From contig JARRQO010000014.1 in assembly GCA_037381685.1 (NCBI GenBank), positions 1 through 39,462 of the forward strand: a DNA stretch of 39,462 nucleotides, given 5' to 3'. A model generated the notes under the pieces. That model was not told the DNA's origin, searched no databases, and worked only from the letters and a program-made list of their open reading frames with translations. How positions within the stretch are numbered: the first letter of the stretch is position 1; each line of letters starts with the position of its first letter. The DNA comes from Deltaproteobacteria bacterium (GTDB taxonomy: Bacteria > Desulfobacterota > Desulfobaccia > Desulfobaccales > 0-14-0-80-60-11). Below are positions 159 through 22,085 of the stretch, in pieces. A program made the translations under genes and the position numbers.

Positions 159-587
159 ATGTTAAAAGTCCTGTTCCTCTGCACCGAAAATTCCTGTCGC
201 AGCCAGATGTCCGAAGGCCTGGTGAACCATGATCTGGCCGGGCGGGTGCAGGCCCGGTCCGCCGGCGTCCGCCCCAGCCGGGTGCACCCCCGGGCCGTGC
301 AGGTCATGGCCGAGTTGGGTATCGATCTCTCGGGTCACCGCGCCAAGTCGGTGGCTGAGTTGGCGGCAGAGCACTTTGACCTGGTCGTCACGGTGTGCGA
401 CCGGGCCCGGCAGGAATGCCCCTTTTACCCCGGCGACACCGAGGTGCTGCACGTGGGTTTTCCCGACCCGGCCGCGGCCCAGGGCTCGGAGGCGGAAATT
501 CTGGCGGTTTTTCGCCAGGTGCGGGATGATCTCCGGCGGCAATTGGTGCCATTGCTTGAAGAGAGGCTCAAGCCGAGGCGCGGTTAA
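159..587 (+). CDS. arsC: arsenate reductase, LMW-PTP family (thioredoxin-coupled type)
   Basis: 142-aa ORF with an N-terminal CX5R(S) P-loop (LCTENSCRSQM). Downstream cysteines (VTVCDRARQECP) match the thioredoxin-coupled ArsC pattern. Confidence 0.85.
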   Translation: MLKVLFLCTENSCRSQMSEGLVNHDLAGRVQARSAGVRPSRVHPRAVQVMAELGIDLSGHRAKSVAELAAEHFDLVVTVCDRARQECPFYPGDTEVLHVGFPDPAAAQGSEAEILAVFRQVRDDLRRQLVPLLEERLKPRRG

Positions 588-641
588 CCGCGCTACCGCG
601 CCCACTTTAGAAGTTCCGGGAGGAGGCCTGGGAGAGCTTGC

Positions 642-1196
642 ATGTTATTGGAAAAGATTAACCATTATGAAATCTTCCGGCCCAAATGCGACGCCAGCAA
701 AGAAGTGCTGCACGGCATCGCCACCTTCGACGCCGACATCTCCCCCGTTTTTCCGTATCTCAACGCCGAACTGGGCGGCTGGGACTATAATCAAAATAAC
801 CAGGTCTTGCTACTGAAACTCTCCGACGGCAAGTGGATCACCTTACAGCGGCACGAGATCGCCATCCGGGGAGCCCGGGATATCGAGGAATCTCAAGCCC
901 TGCTGGAGTGGATCAAGGGGCAGATCAACGAGGTCTACGCGCGCCGGGATCAACTGCAGCCCCGTTATAGCGGCCAGGCCGGTCTCAAGGTCATGGAAAT
1001 CCTCAAGCTCCTGCCTCTGACCAACTGCCAGGCCTGCGGCTACACGGCGTGCATGGCTTATGCCGCGGGCCTGCGGGAAGGAGAGATCAGCCTGAAAGAG
1101 TGCCCGCCCCTCTGGGAAGCCGACTACCGGGATAAGCGGCAAAAACTCCAGGCATATCTGGAAAGCTTCGGCTGGCGCGCCTTGGACGCATTTTGA
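642..1196 (+). CDS. putative Fe-S cluster domain protein (RnfB/CdhE N-terminal-like 'FeS' domain), ars-associated
   Basis: 184-aa ORF. The C-terminal motif LPLTNCQACGYTACMAYA...ISLKECPPL is the CxxCxxxC...C signature of the 'putative Fe-S cluster' domain. It lies directly downstream of arsC. Confidence 0.6.
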   Translation: MLLEKINHYEIFRPKCDASKEVLHGIATFDADISPVFPYLNAELGGWDYNQNNQVLLLKLSDGKWITLQRHEIAIRGARDIEESQALLEWIKGQINEVYARRDQLQPRYSGQAGLKVMEILKLLPLTNCQACGYTACMAYAAGLREGEISLKECPPLWEADYRDKRQKLQAYLESFGWRALDAF

Positions 1197-2696: not shown

Positions 2697-4925
2697 CTAA
2701 AAATTTATACTAATACGCCGGATGTCAAGGAGGGGGCCGTTATTGATGGTGGGAATCGCGGACCACTTGTGGATAATGTAGTGTTTGCGTTGCTCATAGA
2801 GGGCATTCACATCCATCCCGAGTCGGCGCATAACCCGGATGGAAGATCGGGCCTCCCGGTGCAGGTAGGTCAGGTCAAAAAAGCGCTGATTCACATACCC
2901 CTTGGTGTCCATCTGAAAAGCCAGGTCGTTATCTTCAAAGCCCCAGCCTGCGCCATTGAAAGGCGCGCTTTCATCAAAGCGAATCCCGTCAGCGAAGACC
3001 GCGCGGCGAAACATGCCGTACTGCGTCCAGGCCACCAGGTTGGTGGTCTCAACCCGGTTGATGCTATAAAAGGATGAGCTGGCACGTTCCCGAAAGGGCG
3101 TCTGCCCGGCTGAATCCGCACCGATACAGCCCAGGCGGCGCCCGTTATTTTCCAGGTAGCGCAGCATGGCGAAGCTGGAGAAAGGCACGATCTCGATATC
3201 CCCATCCATGAACAGGAGATAATCGGCGTCAATTTCAAGCATATAGTCAATGATTTGGTTCCGCGCCCGCGAACTCCCCAGATTCTCCGGGTTGCAAATC
3301 AGTTGAAAAGGCACGTCGATTGCGGCCCGCAATTGCCTCAGGGCCTCCGCAGTACCGTCCACGGAGCCATTGTCACAAACACAAATATGGGGCTCCTGGC
3401 CCAACCGTCTCAGCATGTGGGCTTCACGGACATAGCACCTCACCGAATCAAGGCTAACGTCACAAGTATTCCACGTGAGCAGAGCCAGAACGATTTTTTT
3501 CCCTGCCGGCAATGCCCCCGGATGCGACTTATAGAAAACCCCGCCCAGGCAGGCGTGGGGATAAGGCTGGTCCTGGCGATAGAGGGTAAGATCATCTTCA
3601 CCAGGGTCATCGATCACTTCAGAGAGTGGATGGATATCGTGCCTGCTGCAGAGGTCAACCCATTCCCGGGGTGTGACCTTATTCCAACCATTGAAAACCT
3701 CCCGGCGATCAGGACGCATCACGCCGAGGTTCAAAAACGCCGGCTGCTGCCAAAAGGAGTCGAAGTAATAATCGGAGGTTAAAATCAGCCAGCCGCCGGG
3801 CTTTAGTTTTCGCGACAAGGCGGCGATCAGGGCTTCTCGCTGCGGCTTGAGCAGATGTTCCAGGGTGTTAATACAAAATACCCGGTCGAAAACCTCGTCA
3901 GGGACTCCGAAAGGCAGCACAAATTTCCCTTTTGGTATCGGATTCCAATGACGATAAAGGATGTGGGGATATAAACCATGCAATCGTTCCTGGAAACCCG
4001 CGGGGTTAATGGTGCAATCCAGGACGGACCCGGTGTTCGGCAGGCGCGCTTGGAACAGGGCAAAAGGCAGTTCCCAGCGCCGCATCCGCGGCAGATTGAG
4101 ACCATGATTGAAAGCCGCGTATTCAGGAAGGGAGAGATGGCCGGTTTTTGCCGGCGTCATCGTGGGAATGGTCCTCTCCACCACGGGCAGTTGAGCAGGT
4201 ACGACCTGGCTGGCGGTTTTCTCTCCCAGAACTCCGCCATAGAAGGACCAATCCTTCCCCAGTATTCCCTGGATTACCTCTACCGGAAAGGATCGCCAGT
4301 AGGCCCCCTGGGTCTGCTTGGGGCTCGCGTTGTTCCCATGAATGAGGCCCACATGAAATGTGGTATCCGGCAAGGCCACCATGCGCTTAGGGTCGCCGCT
4401 CCAGACAAAACGGCCGTCCTCGCCGACATTGATATCTTCGAAAGGATGGTTAACCCAAAAGGCACGCCGGTAACACAGAGTGTTGCCCGACAGCCAAAAG
4501 CGCAAGTGCGCGGGATAGACGTATTCCCAGGCCCTACGGGTATCCAAGTCGTAAAACCGCAAGCGGTTGGTACCGCAGACTTCGGCGCCTGCCTGCCGGA
4601 GCGCCTCGGTCTGGTAGCTTAAACGGTAGGGGGCATACCAGTCGTCGTCATCCCAGTGGGCAATTATGTCACCCTGGGCCTGCTCACAGGCGAGGTTGCG
4701 TTTGGCCCCGATCGTGAGCTTGTTCTCCAAACGGATATACCTAATGCGGCTATCAGACGGAATGAGGTCCCTGATGCTGTCGGTGCCGTCGTCAACGATT
4801 ATCAGTTCCTGGGGGTCATAATCCTGGCGTTGGAAGTAAGCGAGGGCCTGGGCAATAAAAGGACGGCGGTTGTACGTGGGCATGATGCAGGATACCAGCG
4901 GCCTTGCCCTGCTGGCGGCGCTCAT
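2697..4925 (-). CDS. three-domain enzyme: family-2 glycosyltransferase - SAM methyltransferase - family-2 glycosyltransferase
   Basis: 742-aa ORF with AAGGAG 5 nt upstream. N-terminal GT2 signature: CIMPTYNRRPFI..LIIVDDGTDS..HWDDDDWY. Central class-I methyltransferase-like block: FDRVFCINTLEHLLKPQREALIAALSRKLKPGGWLILTSD. C-terminal second GT2: VLALLTWNT..VCDNGSVDGT..LFMDGDIEI. Confidence 0.8.
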   Translation of the reverse strand: MSAASRARPLVSCIMPTYNRRPFIAQALAYFQRQDYDPQELIIVDDGTDSIRDLIPSDSRIRYIRLENKLTIGAKRNLACEQAQGDIIAHWDDDDWYAPYRLSYQTEALRQAGAEVCGTNRLRFYDLDTRRAWEYVYPAHLRFWLSGNTLCYRRAFWVNHPFEDINVGEDGRFVWSGDPKRMVALPDTTFHVGLIHGNNASPKQTQGAYWRSFPVEVIQGILGKDWSFYGGVLGEKTASQVVPAQLPVVERTIPTMTPAKTGHLSLPEYAAFNHGLNLPRMRRWELPFALFQARLPNTGSVLDCTINPAGFQERLHGLYPHILYRHWNPIPKGKFVLPFGVPDEVFDRVFCINTLEHLLKPQREALIAALSRKLKPGGWLILTSDYYFDSFWQQPAFLNLGVMRPDRREVFNGWNKVTPREWVDLCSRHDIHPLSEVIDDPGEDDLTLYRQDQPYPHACLGGVFYKSHPGALPAGKKIVLALLTWNTCDVSLDSVRCYVREAHMLRRLGQEPHICVCDNGSVDGTAEALRQLRAAIDVPFQLICNPENLGSSRARNQIIDYMLEIDADYLLFMDGDIEIVPFSSFAMLRYLENNGRRLGCIGADSAGQTPFRERASSSFYSINRVETTNLVAWTQYGMFRRAVFADGIRFDESAPFNGAGWGFEDNDLAFQMDTKGYVNQRFFDLTYLHREARSSIRVMRRLGMDVNALYEQRKHYIIHKWSAIPTINNGPLLDIRRISINF

Positions 4926-4983
4926 TCTGACTCCTTCGGCGGCTTCGGGTCTGAAAACCCTGGTTCCACAGGCGGAACCTGGC

Positions 4984-6006
4984 CTAGCCCGTGCGGCGCG
5001 AGGCCGCGATATCTTTTTGCAGTTTCTTGATGGTCAGGTCCTTTTTAGAGGATTCCGATTTTAAAGCGGCAATCTCTTTTTTCAGTCCCTCAATCGCGGA
5101 CACCTGGTTCTTAAGATCTGCTATTTCTTTGGTATACGTCTCCCGATCAGTCGCGGCAGCCGTTTTTACTTCCTCCACCTGGGATTTAACCTGCTCCACT
5201 TCGGCTACCCTGGTGTTCACGCGGTTCACTTCTCGGCTCAGGCGCGATACTGCAGCGGCCGAGGCGGTACCGGCGGGTTCGGTGACAATGCTGTAATAGC
5301 GGACCACGCCTTTTTCTTCGTAGAGGTTGACCTTCTGTCCGGGGGCCAGGCGGGCCGGAAAGGTGCGGAGATCGGCCACGGAGGCGGCATTCAACCCCGG
5401 TTTATAGGGCACCACCTGATTTACTGCGATTTGCTGGGCCTTTAGATTCTCCTGGGCGGTGGCGACATCCCGGTTGACCAATTCGTCGGTCTTTTGGGGG
5501 CTGGTTCTCAGAGGTGGAATATCCATTTGAGTCAGGGTGTTCTTGACCATATCCCTGAAAAATCCGGTGGCGAGCCCGATTTTATCCGTAGTCTCCTTCC
5601 AGACCCCTCGGAAGTCGGATCTGAAAACGAAGTCTGCCGTTCGCAGGGCCTGCCGGGCCGTGATCCGGTCCTGCCCCACCACGGCCTCCGCCGGAAGGTC
5701 CACTTCGAGGGTGACCCTGGCGTCGGTGCCGACGTTCACCAGCAGCTCATTCTCCGTACTCATGAGGAGGGTTTCGCCCTGAAAAACTCTGAAAAAGACA
5801 TCAGGAGGGGTTTCGGGAAAAAGCTCCCGGAATTTGGCTTCGTCAAAGGGTATCGTGAAATTCCCCTGGGTATCCGTGTCGGCCCCTCCGAGAGGATCAT
5901 GTATTTTCCCATCTTGGTCCCAGGTTTCGACGCGCAACCCTGAGATCCCTTTCTTGGTCTTGACTTCGATTACCTGACCGGAGATCCGAAAAAGTCTCGC
6001 TGACAT
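4984..6006 (-). CDS. hypothetical CIS-associated protein: N-terminal transthyretin/carboxypeptidase-regulatory-like beta-sandwich, C-terminal coiled coil
   Basis: 340-aa ORF with AAGAGG 5 nt upstream. The N-terminus ISGQVIEVKTKKGISGLRVETWDQDG..DTDTQGNFTIPF resembles CarboxypepD_reg/transthyretin folds. The last ~90 aa are heptad-like and charge-rich (VAEVEQVKSQVEEVKT..IADLKNQVSAIEGLKKEIAALKSE). Confidence 0.7.
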   Translation of the reverse strand: MSARLFRISGQVIEVKTKKGISGLRVETWDQDGKIHDPLGGADTDTQGNFTIPFDEAKFRELFPETPPDVFFRVFQGETLLMSTENELLVNVGTDARVTLEVDLPAEAVVGQDRITARQALRTADFVFRSDFRGVWKETTDKIGLATGFFRDMVKNTLTQMDIPPLRTSPQKTDELVNRDVATAQENLKAQQIAVNQVVPYKPGLNAASVADLRTFPARLAPGQKVNLYEEKGVVRYYSIVTEPAGTASAAAVSRLSREVNRVNTRVAEVEQVKSQVEEVKTAAATDRETYTKEIADLKNQVSAIEGLKKEIAALKSESSKKDLTIKKLQKDIAASRRTG

Positions 6007-6024
6007 GGCGTGCCTCTTTTCCCC

Positions 6025-7473
6025 TTAGGGTTTAGTGTCCAGGATGCTGCAGCAAAACTGGCCGAAAATCGTTTTGATGGCTGGCAGAATGGGAATTACC
6101 GAGAGCCAGTAACCCCAGGTTTGAAACGACTTGACGTAACGCCGTTTCGTGAAGTTGCAGATGTAGTACACGCGGTTTTCCCTGATTTCCACACAACCCA
6201 GGTAGACCTTGTCTTCTTCCCCGCAAGTGGGACAGTCCACCAGGAACTTGTCGCAGAAGCAATCTTTCAGGTGTTGCAGGAAATGACTCATCAGGTCGGT
6301 GCAGGCATTGATCACATCCTGGTGGTATTTTTTGATTACCGCCGGGGGTTCCTGGGTAAAATTGGGGAACCCCTTAACCCCGAAGGCCGCCTCCAGGTTG
6401 ATTGCCGTTATGGTATTGACTATCCAGTTGAGGACGTAGGCGGTTTGGCCTTTGCCGTCAACCACGATATCCATCGGGTAGAGTTGGACCGGGATGCGGT
6501 ATCTGGGCACCAACCTGGCTTTTTTCAAGTCCACCACCACCACTTTGTAGTCGTCGGCCATGGTGACCAGCATACCGACAAAAGGACCGGCTACCAGGGG
6601 AGTTTTTTTCAGGGTCACGAACGCCAACCGGGTCGGGGTATCCCGCGGCAGATCAATGGCCTGATCCTGGGCGCCAGTGGTGCTGTTGAATCGTAATAGC
6701 GCCTTCTTTCCGGGAGCCGGGTTGCCGGTGACATAGAGCAAATCTCCCAAGAGCACCAAGTCATTTTCCCCATCCTCACCCTGCAGGGTGAAACTGGGAA
6801 GTGCTGCCGCCGGGGCATTGAGATCGATCTGGAGAATCCTGGTAAAGGTTGCAGATTCGCTGGGCGTGGTGTCGTTCACCGCGATGAAGGCGAGATGCTT
6901 TTCCGGGGAAATTTTCAGTAAACCGGTGGCGTTGCCGGCCTTGACCGAGGTGGCGGCAAATCCCGGCAAGCCTACAGAGGATATCTGGAAAAGTCCCTGG
7001 TTTTTCGACAGGCCATAGAGCAGGTTGCCCGGGGCCGGCCCATAAGCCAACCGGACAAATTTGGCGGCGCATTGCATGGAAGTCGGCCCCCAGGTGTGGG
7101 TGCCGTTTGCGGCAATGCTGGCCGCGGCAAAGATGGAGTCCTTGTCGTCCTGAAGAGCCACCGCGCTGAGAGCCTGGCCGTCCGGCGATATGGCGACGTC
7201 CTGCACCTGGACATTGGCGCTGGCCGGGAACACCAGGGTTTGCGCCAGTTCCTGCTTGTTGAGATCGTACACGTAAATCTTGTTCTGAGCCCCGCAGGTG
7301 TAAGCCAGGGGGAGGGTAGGATGCAGGCGCAGCCGATGATGGAACTTGAGAGCCGGACCGAAGATGGTGGCCAGGCCCGGATCGATCTCATAATCGGGGA
7401 AAGGCCGGTCATGGTCGAACATGGCGCAGAAAGTCTGGCTGGCCAGGGCTTCCACAATCTTTGAAAAAAGCAC
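6025..7473 (-). CDS. beta-propeller (YVTN-like repeat) protein with Cys-rich region and hydrophobic C-terminal tail; probably the C-terminal part of a frameshift-split gene with 6972..9764
   Basis: 482-aa ORF beginning at a GTG with no SD. Repeated blade-like segments: IYVYDLNKQ..VAISPDGQ; LLYVTGNPAPG; GQTAYVLNWIVNTITAINL. Cys cluster: CFCDKFLVDCPTCGEEDKVYLGC. Hydrophobic end: WGYWLSVIPILPAIKTIFGQFCCSIL. Confidence 0.7.
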   Translation of the reverse strand: MLFSKIVEALASQTFCAMFDHDRPFPDYEIDPGLATIFGPALKFHHRLRLHPTLPLAYTCGAQNKIYVYDLNKQELAQTLVFPASANVQVQDVAISPDGQALSAVALQDDKDSIFAAASIAANGTHTWGPTSMQCAAKFVRLAYGPAPGNLLYGLSKNQGLFQISSVGLPGFAATSVKAGNATGLLKISPEKHLAFIAVNDTTPSESATFTRILQIDLNAPAAALPSFTLQGEDGENDLVLLGDLLYVTGNPAPGKKALLRFNSTTGAQDQAIDLPRDTPTRLAFVTLKKTPLVAGPFVGMLVTMADDYKVVVVDLKKARLVPRYRIPVQLYPMDIVVDGKGQTAYVLNWIVNTITAINLEAAFGVKGFPNFTQEPPAVIKKYHQDVINACTDLMSHFLQHLKDCFCDKFLVDCPTCGEEDKVYLGCVEIRENRVYYICNFTKRRYVKSFQTWGYWLSVIPILPAIKTIFGQFCCSILDTKP

Positions 7474-9764
7474 CAGAGGAGCTTATCTTCAGAATGTGGT
7501 TCATCACTGGCGGAGCCGCACAGGTCCGTGCGTTTCTTGGACCCGGAGAGAAAAATATAAGGGCCGCTGGCCGAATTGATGAGCTGGGCCAGGAGGTTGA
7601 AGAACGCGGTTAAACGCCTCTGTTCCAGGGGAACGGGAGGCTTGTCGGGCATATTGGTGAGGTTCAGGGGAAAATTCTGTCCCCACAGGATGAAGAGGTC
7701 CTCTAGACAGTCTTTATAAAAATCCTGGAGGAGGGTTCCTTCCAGGACAGTCTCCCAGAAATCCTTAGGAACCTCCTTATCGACCGCCAGATTGGCAACT
7801 TGCCCCCCACCCGCACTGATGCTGACGCAGACCTTGCCGGCGCCGTGCTCATCCAAAAGCCCTTTAACCTGAGCCTCGTGAACGAGGTTCCGGACCAACT
7901 CCTGTTGGACCTGAATGCCATAGCCTTCGCAGTCCAGGGCATAGCCCGGCCCTACCACCACTTCTTCCCGGTTTGGGCCGCACTTCATTTTGAGGCCGCA
8001 AACCACCCCATGCCCATGCAGATATTTATTGTGGAAACGCAAGTCCTGGAAGGCACAGAGAAAATCCAGCGCCTCCTGCACGGTCTGGGCCCCGGGCAGC
8101 TGGCATTGCTGGTTGTCAAAGCAGACCTCGTCGGCGCAGATGTCCGTCAGGCTGGGAAACAAGGTCCGGCAGTCGTCCGTTACCTGCGCGTGGCCGCCGC
8201 TGACTTCTATCAGGGCCAGGCGGCAATAGGCATGGTGAATGCCCTTGGGGGGCTGGGCGATGGGATCGGTGTTGGGGACCTGATAGGGCGGCCATTCGAT
8301 ATCGCCGGTGGCGGTGCGGGCCGGAATCAGCCAATAATCCCCTGACCGGTACGTGCCTTCCGAGAACTGGACCTGGATGCCGCTTGCCGGGTCAAGGCTG
8401 AGCCAATTCCCCGCGTCCAGCTTGATGCCGTTGGCGTCAGCCCCACTGCCGTTCTGGTCCCAGCGCCGCAGCTTGGGGTTGCAGGCCTGATCTACGGGGG
8501 TGACCGGCGTGGTCAAGACGATCTGGCGCGGCGCCTGGGTTATTACCCGGTCGATCTGCACCAGTTGCCGCGGGGCGCCTTTGAGGGTCGACTCTTCGTC
8601 GACGATCTCGACCCACTGGCCGCTGGCAAAACCCAGCACCTCATCTTTGCCGGTGTCGGTCACGGTAAGTGTATTGCCGTCGAATTGCACAATGGTGGTT
8701 TCAACCGAGGCGTTTTCCCGCGACCACTTGAAGGTGGCCAGGGACGCCGGCCCGCCATTGTGCAGCTCCACCCGGTAAAGCTGGTTTTCCATCCCTCGAT
8801 AACCGGCCCCCGGGGGCAGCAGGCAGGGGTCTTTTTGAGCCTGGGGCGGTTCGGTGCGGGCGTTCAGGGTGCCGGTGCTCGGGGCGGTATACTGGTCGAA
8901 TTCCGGGAACGTAGTTTCGCAGGTCACCTGGCCGGCCGGCGGACTTGTCGGCGGACTCGCCGGGGGACTCGCCGGCGGGCTGGACATTTCGGCACTCACC
9001 GGCAGCAATTTGACCTGCCAGACGGTTTTCAGCCGCGTGGTGGTATCCGGGCCGCCCAAGGCCACCTCACGGATGCGGCGATCATCTAAGGCAGTTATCT
9101 CCCGCGGCCACACGTCCAGGAAGGCCAGATAGGCGCCGTCGCTTAAAAGCAACTGATTCGGGCCCGCCGGTGGGCTGGTGGGCGGGCTTGACGGCGGACT
9201 CGTCAAAGCACTGGTAAAGTCGGGATGGGGATAATCAGGCTGCGTAGCATAGGTTGTCAGGCGGTGCAGCGCAGCATCGCCGGCGTCCTGCAAGTCTGCA
9301 AGACTGGTGCTGAACGCCAGAAGGTTTCCGCCAGTATCCACGGAAGTGATCTGCAGCACCTTATCTGCCGTTTGGGCCGCGGTAATCCGAACCCATTGGC
9401 CGGCCTGCAGCTCACGCCGGTCCACCATCAACGTGGGAACGCGGGCTTGGTGCGGTTGTCCCTCCACCAGCGTGATGGGGAGCGCGGTCGCCTCTAATTC
9501 GCAGAGCTGTCCGCCCACATAAATCCGGCCGGGGGAGATCGTCAGGTCTAGCCCATCCGGCGTCGCCTCGATCTTGAAGCCGCCCACCTGCTTGGGAACG
9601 CCGCACAAGCCTATCTCATCTTCAGCTTCCGTCCTGGTGCGGTGTAGCTGGATCGCCAGTTGCTCATTGGCGTCGGCGTCCAACTGCACCCGCCCCTGTT
9701 GCATGAGCACACCGCTGTAATGCTTCTCCGGGTCAAAGGTCTTGCGGCTATAATCACCAGGCAT
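6972..9764 (-). CDS. DUF6519-like CIS distal protein (fibre/receptor-module candidate); only ~7471..9764 looks genuinely coding
   Basis: GGGAGG lies 4-5 nt upstream of the ATG. I recall the N-terminus MPGDYSRKTFDPEKHYSGVLMQQGRVQLDADANEQ as the DUF6519 signature seen after baseplate genes in eCIS loci. The last ~165 codons (RLWKPWPARLSAPCSTM...) are R/P/S/W-rich off-frame-looking sequence that overlaps ORF 6025..7473 by ~500 nt. Confidence 0.7.
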   Translation of the reverse strand: MPGDYSRKTFDPEKHYSGVLMQQGRVQLDADANEQLAIQLHRTRTEAEDEIGLCGVPKQVGGFKIEATPDGLDLTISPGRIYVGGQLCELEATALPITLVEGQPHQARVPTLMVDRRELQAGQWVRITAAQTADKVLQITSVDTGGNLLAFSTSLADLQDAGDAALHRLTTYATQPDYPHPDFTSALTSPPSSPPTSPPAGPNQLLLSDGAYLAFLDVWPREITALDDRRIREVALGGPDTTTRLKTVWQVKLLPVSAEMSSPPASPPASPPTSPPAGQVTCETTFPEFDQYTAPSTGTLNARTEPPQAQKDPCLLPPGAGYRGMENQLYRVELHNGGPASLATFKWSRENASVETTIVQFDGNTLTVTDTGKDEVLGFASGQWVEIVDEESTLKGAPRQLVQIDRVITQAPRQIVLTTPVTPVDQACNPKLRRWDQNGSGADANGIKLDAGNWLSLDPASGIQVQFSEGTYRSGDYWLIPARTATGDIEWPPYQVPNTDPIAQPPKGIHHAYCRLALIEVSGGHAQVTDDCRTLFPSLTDICADEVCFDNQQCQLPGAQTVQEALDFLCAFQDLRFHNKYLHGHGVVCGLKMKCGPNREEVVVGPGYALDCEGYGIQVQQELVRNLVHEAQVKGLLDEHGAGKVCVSISAGGGQVANLAVDKEVPKDFWETVLEGTLLQDFYKDCLEDLFILWGQNFPLNLTNMPDKPPVPLEQRRLTAFFNLLAQLINSASGPYIFLSGSKKRTDLCGSASDEPHSEDKLLWCFFQRLWKPWPARLSAPCSTMTGLSPIMRSIRAWPPSSVRLSSSIIGCACILPSPWLTPAGLRTRFTCTISTSRNWRKPWCSRPAPMSRCRTSPYRRTARLSARWLFRTTRTPSLPRPALPQTAPTPGGRLPCNAPPNLSGWLMGRPRATCSMACRKTRDFSRYPL

Positions 9765-9786
9765 GGCGTCCTCCCGTGAATGCGTG

Positions 9787-12006
9787 CTAACTCGCGTAAA
9801 AGATTCCGGCTTCTAAACCGAAGCGCAGGTATTCATCCAGACGGGCTCGCAGGTTGGCTTTCCTCTGTGGCTGATACAAATCATGAAACGCGCCCATTTC
9901 CGCCTGGTCCTCGGCGCCTTCCTGGATCTCCACGGCGCACGACGGGCTGAGTTGGCAGTAACCAGGATCACCGTAACGCGTTGAGGTAAACCCGGGGGTC
10001 AAGGCGGACAGGATCACTTGCCGTTCAACGTCCGGCAAATCGCTCACTGCCGCCAGCCCTAACTCTCGGGCCCGTTGCGCCAGGGCCAGGTAAGGCTGGC
10101 AATTGTAACCGCGCGGCACCAGCGATTTTGGCGGCAGGTAGCAAAAGCGCACACAGCCCTGTTGCAATTGCTCAGCCACAACTTGCGCCACAAAGATGGT
10201 GTTGGAGGCTAAATCCAGGCGCAGGGTGTGCACCTGCCCGATCACCGTGCTGTTTTCGATCTGAAGCGGTGCGCCCGCCTCCACGCCCGCAAGTCCGCCG
10301 TAGGCTACGGCAGTTTCGTCGGTGGCATCCACGATGCTGCCGACGATCCGGACCTGGGCACCTTGGGCGGCACGAATGCCGCCAATGATGGAGGCTTCAA
10401 TCTCGACCATCGTGTTGGGTGCTTCAATGACCAGCCGGGGAGCGGCAGGCTGAGCCCCCACGTCGCGGATAGCGGGGCTTTCGCCGGGGAGCAGGGTGCA
10501 ATGACGCAACCGCAGCACGCGCAGCCGGTTCGGGTTATGTTGATTATCCAGTACCGGCACCCGGAGGCGCCCGCCGCTGATCAGGAAGCCGTTCAGCGTC
10601 ACCTCGGAGTTCTCGCCGCCACAGACCAGCATATCGGCCCCCGGCACCAAGACCGGCCGGCGCTCTTCGGCGGCCCGCAGTTCGATCAGGTGTCCCTCTG
10701 ATACGTCTCCAGCCACCTGGACGTGAGGGGTTTCCACGTAGTATGCATTATTGGTGATTTCCACCACGCCGCCGGTATCGGCCAGTTGATCGAGCGCTTC
10801 CTGTATGGTTGTCCTGTCATCAGGCACCCTGACCAGGTCCGCGTCGCTGCCGCCCACAAACGTGGTCTCCCGGCCATACTGGCCCCCGCCCATATCGGTG
10901 CTGAAACCGTAATGATAGCTGATATGTACCTCGGGACTGGGGCCGAGTCCTGCCGGCAGCGCGATGCGGCCCAGCACCGGATCGATGGCGTATTTGTCGG
11001 TTGGCATATGAGCCCAGGCGCTTCCGGCATCCGACAGGTTGCACACCACGATCTCAGCGGCCGGGATCTCCACCCCATTGACGTTCAGTGCCAGGCTTTT
11101 GCCACGGCCGTAATAAATATCCTTGTCTCTAGCCATTATGCGGCGATTGATGGGGATCGGCACATTGCGGGGCCCGGCCAGGTGAGTGATTAGATCTTCG
11201 GTTTCCGGACTGGTGTAAAGGGCCGTATCTTTTCCCAAGGCATCAAACCGGTAGCGCCGCCCGTCACCCCCATCAAAGGCCGGTACAAAGTTCAGGGGGT
11301 AACTGCCAAGCCGCCAGAGAAAAATGCCGACATTAGGAATGTTATACTTGCCGCGCCGGCTTGCAATCCGGCGCACCTCGACGGTCCGGGCCACCTGGTC
11401 AAAGGGGGTGTTGAAATACTCCAGGTTTTCCCAGTGCCGCACCCCGGCCAGGGACAGGTTATCCGGGCGCAAGTGTTTCAGATATTGCGTCGTGGCCAGG
11501 AGTTGGAAATATTCCACGACATTGGCGCCCCACGGCGCAGTCACCTCCTGGGCCAGTTGCTCAATGACCGCCGCGGTTCCTTTGCGCCGCCGATTCCGCA
11601 GGGTGTTGGCCACCAGGCTGCGCTGGCTGAAGGGGGCCTGGGGAAAGACCGCCAGGTTCCGGGTACCCACCAGATCCCCGATGTAGGGCACCACCCACTC
11701 GGCACACGTCTCAATAAACAGATCGTCATAGAGCTGGTCCAAATCCTCCTCGAGCACCGCAATCTGTTCGGCGATGACCGACAGCCAAGCTTTCAGGGGC
11801 CCGCGGGCGCGCCGCCGCTTTTCCAACAATTCCTGACGGCGCGCCGCCTGCGCGGCGCTCACCTTGGAGGCGAGGGCCAGTAAATTTTGCAGTTCGGTTT
11901 CTTCCTGGTCATCGAGTAGCAACCCCAACGCGGCGGCCAGTTCGCGGTCTCGGGTGCGGTAGATCGCCGGCAGGAGCGCATACAGTTTTTCCAGGTCAAA
12001 GCTCAT
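9787..12006 (-). CDS. baseplate wedge / phage tail protein, P2 gpI-like N-terminus with beta-helix-like C-terminal region (Afp12/Cis12-like)
   Basis: 739-aa ORF whose ATG overlaps the upstream stop by 4 nt. The N-terminus LEKLYALLPAIYRTRD...LKAWLSVIAEQIAVLEEDLDQLYDDLFIETCAEWVVPYIGDLVG matches the Tail_P2_I / TIGR02242-type pattern. Confidence 0.75.
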   Translation of the reverse strand: MSFDLEKLYALLPAIYRTRDRELAAALGLLLDDQEETELQNLLALASKVSAAQAARRQELLEKRRRARGPLKAWLSVIAEQIAVLEEDLDQLYDDLFIETCAEWVVPYIGDLVGTRNLAVFPQAPFSQRSLVANTLRNRRRKGTAAVIEQLAQEVTAPWGANVVEYFQLLATTQYLKHLRPDNLSLAGVRHWENLEYFNTPFDQVARTVEVRRIASRRGKYNIPNVGIFLWRLGSYPLNFVPAFDGGDGRRYRFDALGKDTALYTSPETEDLITHLAGPRNVPIPINRRIMARDKDIYYGRGKSLALNVNGVEIPAAEIVVCNLSDAGSAWAHMPTDKYAIDPVLGRIALPAGLGPSPEVHISYHYGFSTDMGGGQYGRETTFVGGSDADLVRVPDDRTTIQEALDQLADTGGVVEITNNAYYVETPHVQVAGDVSEGHLIELRAAEERRPVLVPGADMLVCGGENSEVTLNGFLISGGRLRVPVLDNQHNPNRLRVLRLRHCTLLPGESPAIRDVGAQPAAPRLVIEAPNTMVEIEASIIGGIRAAQGAQVRIVGSIVDATDETAVAYGGLAGVEAGAPLQIENSTVIGQVHTLRLDLASNTIFVAQVVAEQLQQGCVRFCYLPPKSLVPRGYNCQPYLALAQRARELGLAAVSDLPDVERQVILSALTPGFTSTRYGDPGYCQLSPSCAVEIQEGAEDQAEMGAFHDLYQPQRKANLRARLDEYLRFGLEAGIFYAS

Positions 12007-14738
12007 GGCAGCACCTCTAAACCAAGGGGTCGGGGATCGAGCATCAATATTTCGGCGGGAAAAACCTGGCGTTCGCCCGGCCGCGGCAGCGCGGCTTCCA
12101 GGCGGGGGGGAGGAAGCAAGGGCGCCGGCTGATCGGAACGGTAGAATTGCTTGATGTCCACCGCCACTACTCCCGGAACACTTTGTATGGCCGCGATAAC
12201 TTCGCTCAGGTTGACTGGCTGACCGAAGGTCCGGGCCTCAAAGGAGAAACTGTCACGCAACTGTTGTTCCACCGCGGGCACCACCTTTTCCGGCAGATAA
12301 TCGGCGTGCACTTTTAACGCCGCCGCGAGTCTAAAGAAACGAGGTTGGAAGGAGTGCAGCACCAGAGAAATATTCGGGTTGCCAGCCTTGTGCATGGCGC
12401 TCAGCAGATTCTCATAAAGTTTACTGTCCGATTTAACTTCAGCCCCTCCCACTCCGGCTATGGTCACAAACACTTCCCTTTTTTCGCCGCTCCAGGTCCA
12501 GGTGGCCAGGGCTTTACCAATGCCGCTGAAACTCCGGGCAAAGTCCTCGTAATCCTGGAGTGACACCACTCGGTCCAGGGTCAACACGGTGAGAGGCGCG
12601 TTGGTGCGGGCGTCAGCCAACTGTTCCGGGTCGGCGGCCCCGCTGGCCGCCACGGGATTCGTCACGGCTTTAACCCCCAAAGGCCGCGTCATTAATTGGG
12701 TAAGCTGATTGGCTTTCACCAATCCCGGCAAGCCGATGCCCTTGCGATACTTCGCGGTCACATTCTCCAGGCCGGTGGAGAGGCGCGCCCCGGTTTTCCC
12801 GTCGCCAAAGATCACCGTGCTCCGGCCCGCATCATCGGTCCGGGTCACATAGATGCGCTCCGCGGCGCCATGACTGAGCAAGCTCGGAACCTCGTGCCAC
12901 AGGATGTCGTTGACCCGTACTTCGCAAGTGGTTTGGGAGCCGGCCGGCGTGGCGCCGCTGACGTACGTGAGCGGCGGCTGACGCAGGCTGAAGCGCTGAA
13001 AAGGCTGGCTGGCATCGCCGCCACCCAGGGCTTCCTGGACTGTTTCGCCATGGGTGGCTTCCGCCACATTGGCGTTGATCGTGACCGTTTGGCGCACATA
13101 ACTATAAGTAAGGGACTGCTCCAGAGTCAACACCGTGAACCCCGCTTCAATGGCCACTTTTTTCAGAATTAAAGTCTCACTGGCCCTGATGCCGGCGAGG
13201 TCGCGGCGCTCACCCGTAAGGATGACTCGCTGTCCTTCCTTTAAGCCGAAATACGCCCGGTCCAGCGTGAGGCGGTTTCCTGCCACCGGGTCGTCAATGG
13301 GCAGGTCGGCCAAGGTCAGCGGCTCGCTGGGGGCATAAACCGTCACATCTCGAAAAGCACCGAGATCAGCGGGATTATTTTCAGGAAACAGGGTCCACCA
13401 GGATTGCCCCGGATCCAGGGTGAGGAGGGTGGTTTTGGCACTCATCCCGTAAGCCGTGCGGGGGCGCTGGGACACCTGGTCAAGCGCGAAAATTGCGGTT
13501 GCCTGGCCGGGCTTGGTCAGCGCGACATAAGTCTTTGGGAGAATCCCATCATAGGCATTATCAAGAAAAATCTTATTATTGGCTTCTGCGGCATCCCTGG
13601 GCCATTCGGTCCACTGCGAGGGGGCGTCCACCACAAAGGTGCGGTTGATCTGCTTATAGGTAGGTTGCTTAGGGGCGTTGTACCCGAAAATGGCCGCGTG
13701 CTGCCGCAAAGCATAAATACCGGAGCCTGCCTCCAAGGGCTTGGGGGCCGTCTGTCCGGCCAGGTTGGCGGCCAGCGAGGCGGCTGACCAACCCTGTATC
13801 TGGGTGAGGGCCGACAGGTCTGCCTCACTCCAGGTTTTGCCGGCAATTTCCCGCACCACGTTGTCGTCAAGCTCGACTTTGGTGGGGAAATCATTGAGGC
13901 TGCCCTCCGGAAGGCCCTGGGGGCCTTCATACGGGGGCAGTGGCGCAGGGGGGCTGACAAAATCCACCCGCGTGGTTTTCGCCTCCTCGTCTATCGTCAC
14001 CGCCACCACGTTCAACAGCGGTCCAGGGTTGCCGCTCTTGACGATTAACAGCGTGTCACCCTGCTTTAAGTTGGTCGCAGTGCCCTGTAAGATAACGAAG
14101 GCCGCGGTGGTGGAAACCGGCTGGGGCCTGGTCAGACGTGGCTTAATGGCATTCCAGTCGGCCCGGGTCTCGATCTTCTCGACGGTCTCAAAGGTCACGG
14201 CCTGCTCGCCGGGTCCGGGAATACTCTGCACTTTGGTGCCGACATCGATACTGATGGGAGGCAGGGGCTCCAGGGGGCCGGCAGCCACGGGAGCGAGTGC
14301 CTGACCCAGGGCTCCCGGCGCATCTTCCAGGGTGAAAGCCAGGTATGTGCCGGCGGCCACGCCGGACCGCAGCTCATAGCCGATCAGCCGGGCCAACTCC
14401 AGAACCGAGATTCTCTCCGTGGCGGTGCGCAAATAGGCTTCCTGAGCCAGGCGCTCCTGGTAAAAGGTCAGCACATCGGCCACCACGGCCCAGGCATCGA
14501 TCAGGGCCATGGAGAAGTCATCGTTTTCCCGGGTGGTCAAGCGGCTCAACGCTGGCAGCCGGGAGCCGGAAAGCCGGGCCAACATGGTCGCCTTGAACTG
14601 GGCGTGGGTGCCGGCGCGATACATGATCGCCTTCAGCCCCGGCCGATTGGAGATCAGTAGCGGCGTTTGGGCTGAAATTCCTTGGCAGCAGCCACACTCG
14701 TTCAGGGTGCGCAAGGAAGGATCAAGGGATAAGCTCAT
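12003..14738 (-). CDS. putative baseplate assembly protein (TIGR02243-like large wedge protein)
   Basis: 911-aa ORF with 4-nt overlaps at both ends. The N-terminus LNECGCCQGISAQTPLLISNRPGLKAIMYRAGTHAQFKATMLARLS is the characteristic start of the eCIS 'putative baseplate assembly protein' family. Confidence 0.75.
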   Translation of the reverse strand: MSLSLDPSLRTLNECGCCQGISAQTPLLISNRPGLKAIMYRAGTHAQFKATMLARLSGSRLPALSRLTTRENDDFSMALIDAWAVVADVLTFYQERLAQEAYLRTATERISVLELARLIGYELRSGVAAGTYLAFTLEDAPGALGQALAPVAAGPLEPLPPISIDVGTKVQSIPGPGEQAVTFETVEKIETRADWNAIKPRLTRPQPVSTTAAFVILQGTATNLKQGDTLLIVKSGNPGPLLNVVAVTIDEEAKTTRVDFVSPPAPLPPYEGPQGLPEGSLNDFPTKVELDDNVVREIAGKTWSEADLSALTQIQGWSAASLAANLAGQTAPKPLEAGSGIYALRQHAAIFGYNAPKQPTYKQINRTFVVDAPSQWTEWPRDAAEANNKIFLDNAYDGILPKTYVALTKPGQATAIFALDQVSQRPRTAYGMSAKTTLLTLDPGQSWWTLFPENNPADLGAFRDVTVYAPSEPLTLADLPIDDPVAGNRLTLDRAYFGLKEGQRVILTGERRDLAGIRASETLILKKVAIEAGFTVLTLEQSLTYSYVRQTVTINANVAEATHGETVQEALGGGDASQPFQRFSLRQPPLTYVSGATPAGSQTTCEVRVNDILWHEVPSLLSHGAAERIYVTRTDDAGRSTVIFGDGKTGARLSTGLENVTAKYRKGIGLPGLVKANQLTQLMTRPLGVKAVTNPVAASGAADPEQLADARTNAPLTVLTLDRVVSLQDYEDFARSFSGIGKALATWTWSGEKREVFVTIAGVGGAEVKSDSKLYENLLSAMHKAGNPNISLVLHSFQPRFFRLAAALKVHADYLPEKVVPAVEQQLRDSFSFEARTFGQPVNLSEVIAAIQSVPGVVAVDIKQFYRSDQPAPLLPPPRLEAALPRPGERQVFPAEILMLDPRPLGLEVLP

Positions 14739-15433
14739 CGTCCCCCCTTCATGATCAGGGTGAAGACCCCATGCTCCGGAAAGTCCGGGTCATTGTCCAG
14801 GCGAGCAATCTCGAGCCGCCCTAATTCGAGCTTGCCCGATGCCAGGGCCTCCTTGCCTGGAATCCTCTGACGGTGAAACTTGGTAATGTCAAGCGAATCA
14901 ACCCCCGCTACTGCCTGGGCGGCCGCAAAAAGGGAACTGAGATAAACCGTCTGCCCGAAGGTGAAGTTATCGGGGTGAAACAGGCCCCGGCGTCCGTCCG
15001 GCAAAATGCGATTACTGAAGGTCTGAAGCAGTGCCGCTTTGACATCGCTGGCGAGGTAATTCGCCTTGACGCAGACGACCATTTCAATCTCCAGGGAGAC
15101 GTACTGGGGCCCTTCAACTTCCACGTCTTGACCAGCCATCCGGTAGCGCTCCAGATCATGGCGCAGCCCTTGTTCAAAATCCTCGTCCACGTCTTTGCCT
15201 GCCAGGCGATCAACCGTCAGGTAGCTGGTATACCAGCTCCCGGTCCAGCGGAAAGTGGCGGCGGCGCGCTGCACCTCGGGGGCGCAACGCGCAGCTAGGT
15301 CCGCATAATCCTTCGGCGTAACGGCGCGTTCCTGGGTGCGGAAGGCATGCGGAGCATACTGCCGCACCTGCTCAATGGTTTCAGGGTCCAAGCCGCCTTG
15401 GGCCGGCAACGGGTTTCTCACCGCCACAACCAC
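14735..15433 (-). CDS. baseplate J (gp6/gpJ-like) protein, C-terminal part of a frameshift-split gene
   Basis: The ORF starts inside the conserved baseplate-J core: V(R)NPLPAQGGLDPETIEQVRQYAPHAFRTQERAVTPKDYADLA. This frame stays open upstream of the nominal GTG start (..ISTSAAALVTDPSVVVAVRNPLPAQGG). Confidence 0.8.
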   Translation of the reverse strand: MVVAVRNPLPAQGGLDPETIEQVRQYAPHAFRTQERAVTPKDYADLAARCAPEVQRAAATFRWTGSWYTSYLTVDRLAGKDVDEDFEQGLRHDLERYRMAGQDVEVEGPQYVSLEIEMVVCVKANYLASDVKAALLQTFSNRILPDGRRGLFHPDNFTFGQTVYLSSLFAAAQAVAGVDSLDITKFHRQRIPGKEALASGKLELGRLEIARLDNDPDFPEHGVFTLIMKGGR

Positions 15434-17336
15434 CGAGGGGTCTGTGACCAGCGCGGCAGCGCTTGTCGATATGGGCCAGATTATCGGCGCCGATATTGCC
15501 GATGGCGCCGTTGCCGATGCGATAGGTGGCCGGAAATTTGGTGCCCGGAGATGGGCGCTGCCCCAAGTGATCGTCGCCGAAACGCAGGTAAGCCGTGCCG
15601 TCCGTTTCTACTTCCACCACGAACTCATGGCTCTCCGGCTTGCTGCTCAACAGGTCGTGCCGGGGGTCCCAGTCCGGCGCCTCGGGGGTGGGATCGGCAA
15701 GCCGAATGACCGGCACCGGAACCTGCGAGGGGTCTGCCATGGAGAAGGACATGGCCGCAGCAGCCGAAGCCGGCGGATTCTTTGGGTCGTAAGGCACAGC
15801 CTGGGTCAGCGGCGCCCGGGTCAGCTTCGGCCGGTAACGCGGGGCCGGGAGGGGAGCCGGACTATCCTGGCAATGGTCGCGGACCGCGGGGGCGACCTTG
15901 GTAAGTACCGGGTTAGGACTGGGGACCGTGTCGAGATCAAGGGAAGTGGCATCCCGTTCTGGGTCGAAGGGTCTGCCTTCCGGCATATCCGTGAAGGTCA
16001 TGCCATGGTCCGCCAGGACGATATTGCCCAGCGCCACGCTAACCTGGTCAAAAAAGGCGGTACCGCAACGGGACGAGATGCACAGCGGAAAGGGCAAGGC
16101 ATCCGCCTGGCCCCAGGCGATTTCGGTCACCGCAACCCCGGTCAGAGGATCACTGCCGGGGTTGACGGTAAGAAGCCGGACCGGATGGCGGTGGGCCGGG
16201 TCGGCATCTTCCGCCTCGCCGGTCTGCGGGCCCCGCACTTCTGCCAGGATCAGCACGTCCCCCGGTTGCAGGTTCGGATAGTCGCCGCGCAGCGTGGCGC
16301 GGGTAGCTCCTTGGGGGAGACAGCACTCCCGAGCGCTCCAATTATAGAAAGTCATCTCATTGTGGCCGGGGCGCAGCATGATATCGTGCAGGAGTTCGAA
16401 GACTTGCGGCCGTCCGGCGAGAGCCTGGGCGCAAGCTGGTGACTTCTGCGGTATGACCGGGGATTGTCCCGGCAGGCGCGAGAGCAGTTTGGTGGTCTCC
16501 CGGCCCTGTCCCGCTCTCAATTCCAGGCTCACGATATCGGGCCGGACCTGCACCTGAACCCAGACCCGGGCATTCCTGCCGTCGTGCATGGGGTAATCCA
16601 CCAACCGGGCATGACGCCTGACAGAGGTGCGCCGCCGGGCCGTGCCCAGGTAGGCTTCGGTGGCTACGGCGTCTTGCTGATAGCTCAGATAATCGCCGAC
16701 GTAGGCCAAAAGCTCCACCAGGGCAATTCCCAGGTCTGAGGGATGGCGCTCTTGCCATGGCGGCATCAGGACCGCCAGGCGGTCCAGCATGAGCTGGCGA
16801 AAGCTGGCGTAATCCTTGGCCAGATAGTTTATTTCCGGCGGTGTCGCCTGAATGCCGGGGCAGGTAAGGTCCGATTGGCAATCGAAGTCACTGGGGCAGG
16901 CGGCCTTGAAGGAGAAATCAACGGCCGACAGCACCGGGTCAAAATCAAATACCCCGGGCGGAGAGGGGGGAGACGCTGGTGCTGCGTCCGGCACCAGGCG
17001 CAGGGTGTAGGTGGAAAAATCCCCGGCAGCCGACACTTCCACCACCAAAACATTGGCTGGAATTTCGGGGGGCGAAGGGGGCGAACCCGGAGCGCCATAG
17101 GTCACTTTGGTGACTTGGATATTGCGGATGCGCTCGCCTCCTTCGATGCGCAGGTTTTCTTCCTTTAACACCCCCGGAGTCAGGTCTTTAAGGAAATGTA
17201 CCAACAGGGTGCGCTGCCGCTTCTCCAGCGGCTCATCCATGTGGTCCACAACCTCAAGGAAGTCGATGCCGTTTAAGGTGGGATGCGCCAGCACCTCGTT
17301 GCGGCGGCGCTCATCACAGCAAAAATAGGCCGTCAT
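15381..17336 (-). CDS. baseplate J (gp6/gpJ-like) protein, N-terminal part of a frameshift-split gene (Afp11/Cis11-like)
   Basis: 651-aa ORF with a 4-nt overlap with gp25. It begins MTAYFCCDERRRNEVLAHPTLNGIDFLEVVD and contains ..TYRIGNGAIGNIGADNLAHI. After that the frame decays into RCRAGHRPLGGCGGEKPVAGPRRLGP*, while the family sequence continues in the frame of 14735..15433. Confidence 0.8.
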   Translation of the reverse strand: MTAYFCCDERRRNEVLAHPTLNGIDFLEVVDHMDEPLEKRQRTLLVHFLKDLTPGVLKEENLRIEGGERIRNIQVTKVTYGAPGSPPSPPEIPANVLVVEVSAAGDFSTYTLRLVPDAAPASPPSPPGVFDFDPVLSAVDFSFKAACPSDFDCQSDLTCPGIQATPPEINYLAKDYASFRQLMLDRLAVLMPPWQERHPSDLGIALVELLAYVGDYLSYQQDAVATEAYLGTARRRTSVRRHARLVDYPMHDGRNARVWVQVQVRPDIVSLELRAGQGRETTKLLSRLPGQSPVIPQKSPACAQALAGRPQVFELLHDIMLRPGHNEMTFYNWSARECCLPQGATRATLRGDYPNLQPGDVLILAEVRGPQTGEAEDADPAHRHPVRLLTVNPGSDPLTGVAVTEIAWGQADALPFPLCISSRCGTAFFDQVSVALGNIVLADHGMTFTDMPEGRPFDPERDATSLDLDTVPSPNPVLTKVAPAVRDHCQDSPAPLPAPRYRPKLTRAPLTQAVPYDPKNPPASAAAAMSFSMADPSQVPVPVIRLADPTPEAPDWDPRHDLLSSKPESHEFVVEVETDGTAYLRFGDDHLGQRPSPGTKFPATYRIGNGAIGNIGADNLAHIDKRCRAGHRPLGGCGGEKPVAGPRRLGP

Positions 17337-17698
17337 GCGGCACCCCCGCGGCTGAATTGGGCCACCTGCTGTTGCTGCGTGCGCCGCACGGTATATTGGA
17401 TGGTCACGTTCACGGTGGCATCCTCGGCTTCCACCTGCACGCCGTCCACCTGAATCACATCACCGAGCCACTGCTGCAGCGCTCCCTGGACCAAAAACTG
17501 GGTAGCCGCGGCCAGCTCATCACTGTTGGGGGCGAAAACCAGCTGCATCAGGCCGCTGCCGAAGTCAGGCCGATTGACCCGCTCACCCGGATTGGTGAAG
17601 AGCAACTGCTCGATCAGATCCCGGATGTGGTCGTCGTCATCGGCAGTGGCGGTGCGGCCGGCGCCGTCAAAGTGAAATGGGTAAGCGATATTCATCAT
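17333..17698 (-). CDS. GPW/gp25-family baseplate wedge protein (Afp9/Cis9-like)
   Basis: 121-aa ORF. FPFHFDGAGRTATADDDDHIRDLIEQLLFTNPGERVNRPDFGSGL is the canonical gp25 motif. Confidence 0.9.
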   Translation of the reverse strand: MMNIAYPFHFDGAGRTATADDDDHIRDLIEQLLFTNPGERVNRPDFGSGLMQLVFAPNSDELAAATQFLVQGALQQWLGDVIQVDGVQVEAEDATVNVTIQYTVRRTQQQQVAQFSRGGAA

Positions 17699-17702
17699 CC
17701 CC

Positions 17703-18026
17703 TCACATTCCGGTGACTCGGGTCTGGGTCACCACAATCAGCAGAGGAGTGCCCGTCGGCGCGCAAATCGCCTGGCTGTCCAGCAACAACAGCGGCTGCC
17801 CGTTGGAAGTCAGGCGTGTGGCGGCCGTCACAAACTGGGCGGTCACGCAGGGTCCATTGGCCGCGGGTGGCGGCGGCAGCGCGCAGCCCGCCACGACATA
17901 AGGCGAGGCCAGCGTTACGGTGGGTTGGCCGCTGACCAGCACCCGGGGATTGGGCACTGTGGGTTGCGCCTGCCCTGCATGTGAGCACAATACCGTGGCG
18001 CCGACGTGCAGCAAAAAGCCTGGCAT
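17703..18026 (-). CDS. PAAR-like / DUF4280-like spike-tip protein (Afp10/Cis10-like)
   Basis: The start is taken at ATG 18026 (GGGAG 7 nt upstream) rather than GTG 18047. It is small and Gly/Val/Cys-rich (HVGATVLCSHAGQAQP..VVAGCALPPPPAANGPCV..AICAPTG) and sits between the spike and gp25. Confidence 0.6.
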   Translation of the reverse strand: MPGFLLHVGATVLCSHAGQAQPTVPNPRVLVSGQPTVTLASPYVVAGCALPPPPAANGPCVTAQFVTAATRLTSNGQPLLLLDSQAICAPTGTPLLIVVTQTRVTGM

Positions 18027-22062: not shown

Positions 22063-22085
22063 ATAAACTTCCTACAGCCGACCTG

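Follow-up and report, generated by a model that had tools for sequence, protein, structure and literature searches.

The window analysed here, a stretch of 39,462 nucleotides (nt) from a Deltaproteobacteria bacterium (contig JARRQO010000014.1), carries a complete extracellular contractile injection system (eCIS) operon on its minus strand. Two overlapping open reading frames (ORFs) at 6025-9764, in the tail-fibre position of this operon, very probably constitute one gene, which encodes a fibre of the eBAP5 class and is broken by a lesion in codon 771. The ORF list and the sequence place a 930-amino acid (aa) ORF at 6972-9764 and a 482-aa ORF at 6025-7473, both on the minus strand, with 502 nt shared between them. 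In the 930-aa ORF, the final ~160 codons are off-frame. The 482-aa ORF starts, as had been remarked earlier and is confirmed in the sequence, at a GTG three codons past an in-frame TAA, with no Shine-Dalgarno core (AGGA, GGAG or GAGG) in the 27 nt upstream of it. In the public annotation of the record, the region appears as two proteins of 930 and 350 aa, and the start of the 350-aa protein lies inside the propeller domain that is described below. The original prediction was that the two ORFs encode a single protein of about 1245 residues; it is borne out by an exact intact ORF on two near-identical contigs and by the fused state of every homologue examined.

When a fused construct of both ORFs was used as the query in a protein-collection search, the top match was a 1246-aa protein (P0001), listed with 100% identity and coverage. 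Thousands of DUF6519 proteins of 1130-1590 aa spanned the whole fused query, and all top homologues carry PF20129. P0001 and another protein of 1246 aa (P0122) are encoded by L001 and L002, two Joint Genome Institute (JGI) metagenome contigs that derive from different samples. Positions 4052-11053 of the window are matched by L001 with 99.91% identity, and L002 is 99.6% identical to the window, with 31 single-nucleotide polymorphisms (SNPs). In the DNA alignment, both contigs read ATTGCGGGAAG where the window reads ATTGTGGAAG, and the lesion is therefore a change of CGGG to TGG in codon 771 (nt 7453-7454), located 10 nt downstream of a run of six T residues (T6). The true junction of the restored protein is ..CFFQRLREALAS.. 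(in a longer form, ..LLWCFFQRLREALASQTF..). The elements around the junction, all on the minus strand, are the following:

7455-9764, minus strand: codons 1-770 in frame A, whose translation exactly matches residues 1-770 of P0001.
7464-7469, minus strand: the T6 run (TTTTTT on the coding strand), identical and free of indels in the intact relatives L001 and L002.
7453-7454, minus strand: the lesion, in which TG is the remnant of codon 771 (CGG in the intact relatives), formed by a 1-nt deletion and an adjacent C>T substitution.
6025-7452, minus strand: codons 772-1246 and the stop codon in frame B, whose translation exactly matches residues 772-1246 of P0001.

The base missing from the window had previously been placed in the T6 run. 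One T added there does fuse the ORFs, giving 1246 codons with a single stop, but the run is ruled out as the site of the loss: the intact relatives share it, the indel lies 10 nt further downstream, and repair at T6 leaves four wrong residues in the protein (SKIV for QRLR). Similarly, the genuine part of the 930-aa ORF had been thought to end near nt 7470, at ..CFF, but in frame A it extends to ..CFFQRL (codon 770, nt 7455), and the off-frame tail lies beyond that point. The off-frame nature of this tail was confirmed with six heterologous homologues (37-72% identity), whose alignments to the window keep to one frame as far as nt 7455 and, starting at nt 7470, run in the -1 frame.

The junction is continuous in all 117 aligned homologues and falls in a gap-free conserved stretch, in which residue 771 is Arg or Lys in 110 of the 117 proteins and which is modelled as a helix with a predicted local distance difference test (pLDDT) score of 93-95. 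The fibre is encoded in a single frame in 16 genomic loci, which represent at least five phyla or classes of bacteria (Bacteroidota, Acidobacteriota, Actinomycetota, Chloroflexota and Deltaproteobacteria). Among the 117 aligned homologues and these 16 loci, no orthologue is split into two genes at the junction, and DUF6519 and the propeller are fused in every homologue. An arrangement of two independent genes, one for a DUF6519 baseplate protein and the other for a separately translated propeller protein, would be in line with the 930-aa and 350-aa proteins called in the public annotation; its probability is next to nil. It would leave 160 off-frame residues at the end of the 930-aa product, require the 482-aa ORF to start at a GTG without a Shine-Dalgarno sequence, place the annotated 350-aa start within the propeller, and cut a conserved helix at a position where no orthologue is split.

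A -1 shift at T6 (7464-7469) regains the downstream frame with only four residues altered and could let the damaged allele still yield some near-native protein through leaky expression. These properties would suit a programmed -1 ribosomal frameshift, or transcriptional slippage, that yields the 930-aa and 1246-aa products in a fixed ratio. We consider such a mechanism extremely improbable, since the same T6 run is found in near-identical intact relatives in which no shift is needed, every homologue is encoded in one frame, and the zero-frame sequence C-TTT-TTT-C contains no canonical X XXY YYZ heptamer. Six T residues are also short for efficient transcriptional slippage. The split is neither a natural two-gene arrangement nor a programmed frameshift, and the codon-771 lesion arose either through an error of sequencing or assembly or through a mutation that very recently inactivated the gene in this strain. 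It is private to the window record, and no other frameshift is apparent in 39 kb. Over the 1.43 kb that follow it, the window does not differ from L001 or L002, and this lack of decay implies that the lesion, if real, is very recent. SNPs that neither JGI contig shares indicate that the record, an NCBI contig, comes from a distinct strain.

The restored protein has the domains that had been recognised in the two ORFs: DUF6519 (PF20129; 220.1 bits against a Pfam gathering cut-off of 22.4, E=7e-65), two SPPx loops, 30 Cys residues in total, a seven-bladed YVTN-like propeller and a hydrophobic C-terminus. From the N- to the C-terminus, its features are:

8130-9764, minus strand (residues ~1-545): DUF6519/eBAP5 baseplate-anchor region, assigned by the Pfam match to DUF6519.
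9162-9203, minus strand (residues 188-201): first SPPx loop, TSPPSSPPTSPPAG, predicted to be disordered (pLDDT <50 at 185-202).
8931-8984, minus strand (residues 261-278): second SPPx loop, SSPPASPPASPPTSPPAG, predicted to be disordered (pLDDT <50 at 260-277).
Residues ~578-663, minus strand: His/Cys-rich beta module, followed by the first half of a helical domain in frame A.
6397-7374, minus strand (residues ~798-1123): seven-bladed propeller, preceded by the rest of the helical domain.
6151-6270, minus strand (residues 1166-1205): C-terminal Cys cluster, LKDCFCDKFLVDCPTCG...YICNF, nearly invariant in the family and modelled as a helix and a beta-hairpin.
6040-6117, minus strand (residues 1217-1242): hydrophobic C-terminal tail, WGYWLSVIPILPAIKTIFGQFCCSIL, a proposed docking or junction element.

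Frame B thus continues after the propeller into C-terminal helices, the Cys cluster and the hydrophobic tail. Residues of the Cys cluster are among the invariant and at least 90% conserved columns of the alignment. Both S-P-P loops are located inside the DUF6519 region, and their length differs widely among homologues; at the position of the first loop, homologues have S-P-P repeats of variable length.

A full-length AlphaFold2 model was made as a monomer for P0003, a homologue with 68% identity, and has a mean pLDDT of 85.5. In P0003 numbering, it comprises a beta-rich DUF6519 region (1-450), the His/Cys-rich beta module (483-560), the helical domain (566-671) and the propeller (695-1022), which is formed by seven blades with 28 strands and predicted with a pLDDT of 93-98. 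Past the propeller, two helices (1038-1070) are followed by the beta-hairpin that bears the Cys cluster, and the chain ends with two short helices (1110-1118 and 1123-1135; pLDDT 49-76). The only significant sequence match of the propeller profile in the PDB is the YVTN propeller of the Methanosarcina mazei surface-layer protein (1l0q, E=8e-12), which is seven-bladed like that of the fibre but belongs to a protein with a PKD domain that is not part of an injection system. Foldseek comparisons of the propeller return seven-bladed WD40-type folds with TM-target scores of up to 0.77.

Foldseek searches with the full-length model were swamped by WD40-type propellers in both libraries and were uninformative for the N-terminus, and a separate AlphaFold2 model was therefore made of residues 1-769 of the window's own protein (pLDDT 77). 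Its best matches are proteins from phage structures, namely the baseplate of phi812 (9eui_Q/9euj_G; E=5.8e-6), the tail tip of phage Chi (8vjh_B) and the baseplate of JBD30 (8rk3_D), with E-values ranging to 6e-3; with TM-scores of ~0.1 and ~10% identity, the likeness holds only at the level of shared baseplate and receptor-binding protein domains. A further weak match (E=8.5e-3, 255 columns) is with the baseplate of the Anabaena thylakoid-anchored contractile injection system (tCIS; 7b5h, chains AA/AB), in agreement with the published partial similarity between eBAP5 and the crown (Cis19). For a likeness of the anchor region to the tCIS crown and to the 'shoulder' domains of phage receptor-binding proteins, these predicted fold matches are supportive, rather than strong, evidence.

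A study published in January 2026 defined DUF6519 as eBAP5, one of the five domains by which eCIS tail fibres are anchored N-terminally to the baseplate (658 genes), and reported that it partly resembles the crown domain of the Anabaena tCIS (PMC12923769). The gene at 6025-9764 is a member of this published eBAP5/DUF6519 fibre family and is located at the expected operon position. With the fibres described there it shares the N-terminal DUF6519, a place right after the baseplate genes and a modular C-terminal binding region. The Pfam table of that study includes a gene that combines DUF6519 with Lactonase, i.e. an eBAP5 fibre that bears a propeller; the propeller-type distal module is already present in public catalogues. 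The same study stresses macroglobulin, pectin-lyase, lectin and haemagglutinin modules and a bias towards Actinobacteriota, whereas the fibre described here has a helical domain, a YVTN propeller, a Cys cluster, a hydrophobic tail and a split or fused PASTA-like/coiled-coil partner, and its subfamily is spread over the five groups listed above.

In the operon, the genes for the sheath, tube, T4_baseplate-like protein, Pvc16_N protein, AAA ATPase, DUF4157/eCIS_core protein and an Lgt-like membrane protein are followed by those for CIS_tube, spike, gp25, the TIGR02243 baseplate protein, two Baseplate_J-like proteins, a 739-aa protein and the fibre. Across the 16 genomes, wherever sufficient upstream sequence is available, the order of spike, gp25, baseplate genes, fibre, partner gene or fused extension, and glycosyltransferase is conserved. 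The immediate upstream neighbour of the fibre gene is:

9787-12006, minus strand: 739-aa baseplate-periphery gene in the Afp12 position, adjoining the fibre gene in 15 of the 15 full loci in which the region is present.

The 739-aa protein has no match in Pfam or NCBIfam. Its position, taken together with PMC12923769, makes it the probable attachment partner of the fibre. The eBAP5 systems of that study largely lack Afp12 homologues (PMC12923769), whereas here a gene occupies the Afp12 position. The location of the fibre gene after the baseplate genes confirms the earlier placement at the tail-fibre position; the suggestion that the protein replaces a fibre holds for the position, but the protein is an actual fibre of a class different from Afp13 and not a substitute for one. 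Afp13 of the Serratia Afp and Pvc13 of the Photorhabdus PVC, which belong to the eBAP1 class, have the same operon position and the same presumed target-binding role, but their fold is unrelated: a short helical anchor is joined to an adenovirus-like shaft and knob, with neither DUF6519 nor a propeller. The NCBIfam model CIS13_fam scores 19.9 bits for a weak match against a cut-off of 370, which we judged not meaningful, and a literature search found no report of DUF4815 together with contractile injection systems.

Family membership, gene position and fold together suggest how the fibre, a presumed receptor-binding protein, may be organised. The N-terminal DUF6519/eBAP5 region would fix it to the baseplate periphery, the His/Cys-rich beta module and the helical domain would form the shaft, and the seven-bladed YVTN-type propeller would act as the distal binding module. 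The chain would be closed by the nearly invariant Cys cluster and the proline-kinked hydrophobic tail, which may serve as a docking or junction element for the product of the downstream gene, a 340-aa PASTA-like/coiled-coil protein. This docking role of the tail is a tentative proposal, to which we give somewhat less than an even chance.

Several points weigh against this reading of the locus. Attachment to the baseplate, assembly as a trimer, recognition of a receptor through the propeller and docking of the partner are inferences; the TM-scores of the N-terminal fold matches are low, at ~0.1; and the tail is modelled with low confidence. The change at codon 771 is complex, combining a substitution with a deletion. 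In addition, a relative with 82% identity (L083, JGI contig Ga0597090_0036166) also has a disrupted copy of the fibre gene, called as proteins of 979 and 208 aa. At 3860-3890 of that contig, a deletion of ~130 nt removes residues ~911-950 and changes the frame within the propeller. Elsewhere in the lineage, then, the gene is either truly inactivated or wrongly assembled, and given this case a real inactivation in this lineage is possible.

The hydrophobic segment at the C-terminus had been interpreted as a possible tail-anchor transmembrane (TM) helix. The segment itself is clearly present: no other stretch of 19 residues in the protein is as hydrophobic, and its Kyte-Doolittle mean of 1.60 (family average 1.41) just reaches the classical threshold of 1.6. 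Its sum on the Hessa scale, calculated in a crude, position-independent way, is +6.7 (homologue range +5.4 to +14.6). Across the 117 homologues, a Trp and a Ser of the tail are invariant, the two residues of a CC pair are conserved in 114 and 112 proteins, and of two prolines with a spacing of three residues, one occurs in 117 and the other in 113. In most homologues, the second half of the tail contains Lys and Glu residues (consensus ..PLIKKAFEKFCC.., with 3-4 charged residues), and the longest charge-free run has a median length of 13 residues. In the AlphaFold2 model, the tail is predicted to fold into a pair of short helices (9 and 13 residues), and an uninterrupted hydrophobic C-terminal helix of ~20 residues, as expected of a tail-anchored protein, is not seen. 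Nor is the segment C-terminal throughout the family. In 40 of the 117 homologues (34%) it is internal and followed by 220-400 soluble-looking residues, and 8 of 14 genomic loci encode this long form.

A membrane-anchored injection system, in which the tail would be a tail-anchor or monotopic element tying the baseplate to the membrane of the producing cell, has a precedent in the Anabaena tCIS. There, the trimeric, fibre-like protein Cis13 has a predicted TM helix that thylakoid anchoring was shown to require, and removal of the helix frees the particles (PMC8894136). The peak hydrophobicity of the tail, the invariant aromatic residues (YW) and CC pair, and the uncharged runs of 22-23 residues in a few homologues would be compatible with such an anchor. 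The Lgt-like protein of the operon has true TM segments of which some are also rated unfavourable by the crude hydrophobicity scales, which keeps membrane association conceivable. Because the scales are not decisive alone, the case against a TM helix rests mainly on the two near-invariant prolines in the middle of the segment, the charges in its second half, the two short helices modelled in place of one of at least 20 residues, and its internal position in about a third of the family. The family is, moreover, catalogued among fibres of extracellular systems, and the thylakoid, cyanobacterial context of the Anabaena tCIS is not present here, where the tail lacks the features of a TM helix. From its sequence and predicted structure, a TM helix is disfavoured, though not disproved, and a membrane-anchored system of this kind appears improbable; the original prediction of an anchored system was drawn from that helix and is unsupported together with it.

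Lipidation of the CC pair by the Lgt-like protein (20896-22062) was also considered and is unsupported. At 20896-23414 on the minus strand, DUF4157/eCIS_core is encoded beside a polytopic membrane protein of 388 aa that contains an Lgt (prolipoprotein diacylglyceryl transferase) domain. The two genes are adjacent in 22 of the 25 metagenome loci with enough sequence (among L086-L140), in either order, and the pair is found at varying places in the operon and relative to the fibre gene. The Lgt-like gene belongs to a cargo cassette and not to the fibre, and the pair looks like a mobile cargo/partner cassette, possibly of a toxin/immunity-like kind.

Docking of the downstream protein at the tail, the role that we tentatively prefer to membrane anchoring, is suggested by the genes that follow the fibre gene:

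4984-6006, minus strand: 340-aa partner gene, whose product has a beta-sandwich-like domain at the N-terminus, a PASTA-like domain and a coiled coil at the C-terminus.
2697-4925, minus strand: gene for a GT2-methyltransferase-GT2 protein (GT2, family 2 glycosyltransferase; Pfam Glycos_transf_2, E=8e-39), with a homologue downstream in 11 of 16 loci.

Homology (BLASTP E=5e-20 and 1e-15) links residues 111-340 of the partner with the C-terminal extensions present in long-form fibres, and a tblastn search with one of these fibres, P0062, matches positions 5014-5673 of the window. Against the PASTA model (PF03793), the extension of P0062 scores 23.3 bits, just above the Pfam cut-off of 23.2, while that of P0046 scores 15.9 bits; the remainder of the long-form extension is a coiled coil. 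The 340-aa protein of the window has no direct PASTA match and is tied to the extensions only through the BLASTP homology (E=5e-20). A separate partner gene is present 20-40 nt downstream of the fibre gene in all six short-form loci and in none of the eight long-form loci, and in about a third of the homologues the partner is covalently fused to the fibre exactly at the tail. The simplest reading is that the tail marks the joining point of the partner module, with a covalent connection in the long forms. The short-form partner carries an extra N-terminal beta-sandwich-like domain, through which the two proteins may be joined when they are made separately. Residues 6-88 of this N-terminal domain (gene at 4984-6006, minus strand) significantly match residues 53-136 of a cyanobacterial lipoxygenase (PDB 5ek8; E=3.4e-9); in Pfam, the domain has weak transthyretin-like and CarboxypepD_reg matches.

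The conserved presence of the GT2-methyltransferase-GT2 gene downstream raises the possibility that the S-P-P loops of the fibre are O-glycosylated. A bolder and, in our estimate, unlikely proposal is that the YWLSxxPxxP...FCC motif of the tail, the PASTA-like/coiled-coil partner and the glycosyltransferase make up a distinct fibre-tip complex with an undescribed mode of targeting or anchoring. In such a complex, the hydrophobic motif would dock the partner or engage a membrane interfacially, and the PASTA-like domain would contact cell-wall material.

The remainder of the operon yields further observations. Over window positions 9787-19730, identity to the closest genome, a Pyrinomonadaceae metagenome-assembled genome (MAG; L009), drops steadily from the inner to the outer baseplate: it is 79% for p374, 85% for the spike and 74% for gp25, and then 55-62%, 45-51% and, for the fibre, 43%. 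The baseplate genes are nearest to this MAG (79-85% identity), while the fibre is closest to that of an unclassified 'bacterium' MAG (L003; 56-57% identity). Such a gradient would be expected if the distal parts evolve faster or are exchanged. The 651-aa TIGR02243 gene and the next gene, for a 232-aa Baseplate_J-like protein, overlap by 53 nt (15381-15433, minus strand). This overlap is shared with L010 and L054, and the other genomes have a gap of ~90 nt; it is a natural arrangement and not a second frameshift. At 31071-32234, upstream of the sheath gene and across a divergent histidine-kinase gene, the G+C content is ~45-50%, compared with ~60% elsewhere, and this segment is probably the promoter/regulatory region of the operon.

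In summary, what is one fibre gene appears in the public annotation as a chimera of 930 aa, of which 160 residues are junk, and a propeller truncated to 350 aa, and anyone who mined the record for eCIS fibres or for receptor-binding domains would obtain two wrong products. The value of the result is mainly corrective, as the split is a one-base lesion and not biology of general interest, and the tempting idea of a membrane-anchored contractile injection system is unsupported by the analysis. The modest new observation is that the fibre and the product of the next gene form a split-or-fused pair, joined at a conserved hydrophobic tail in a large subfamily that spans several phyla, which provides a testable hypothesis for the function of the tail. 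If the fibre-tip complex proposed above were real, it would represent a new targeting or anchoring mode for a widespread eCIS lineage.

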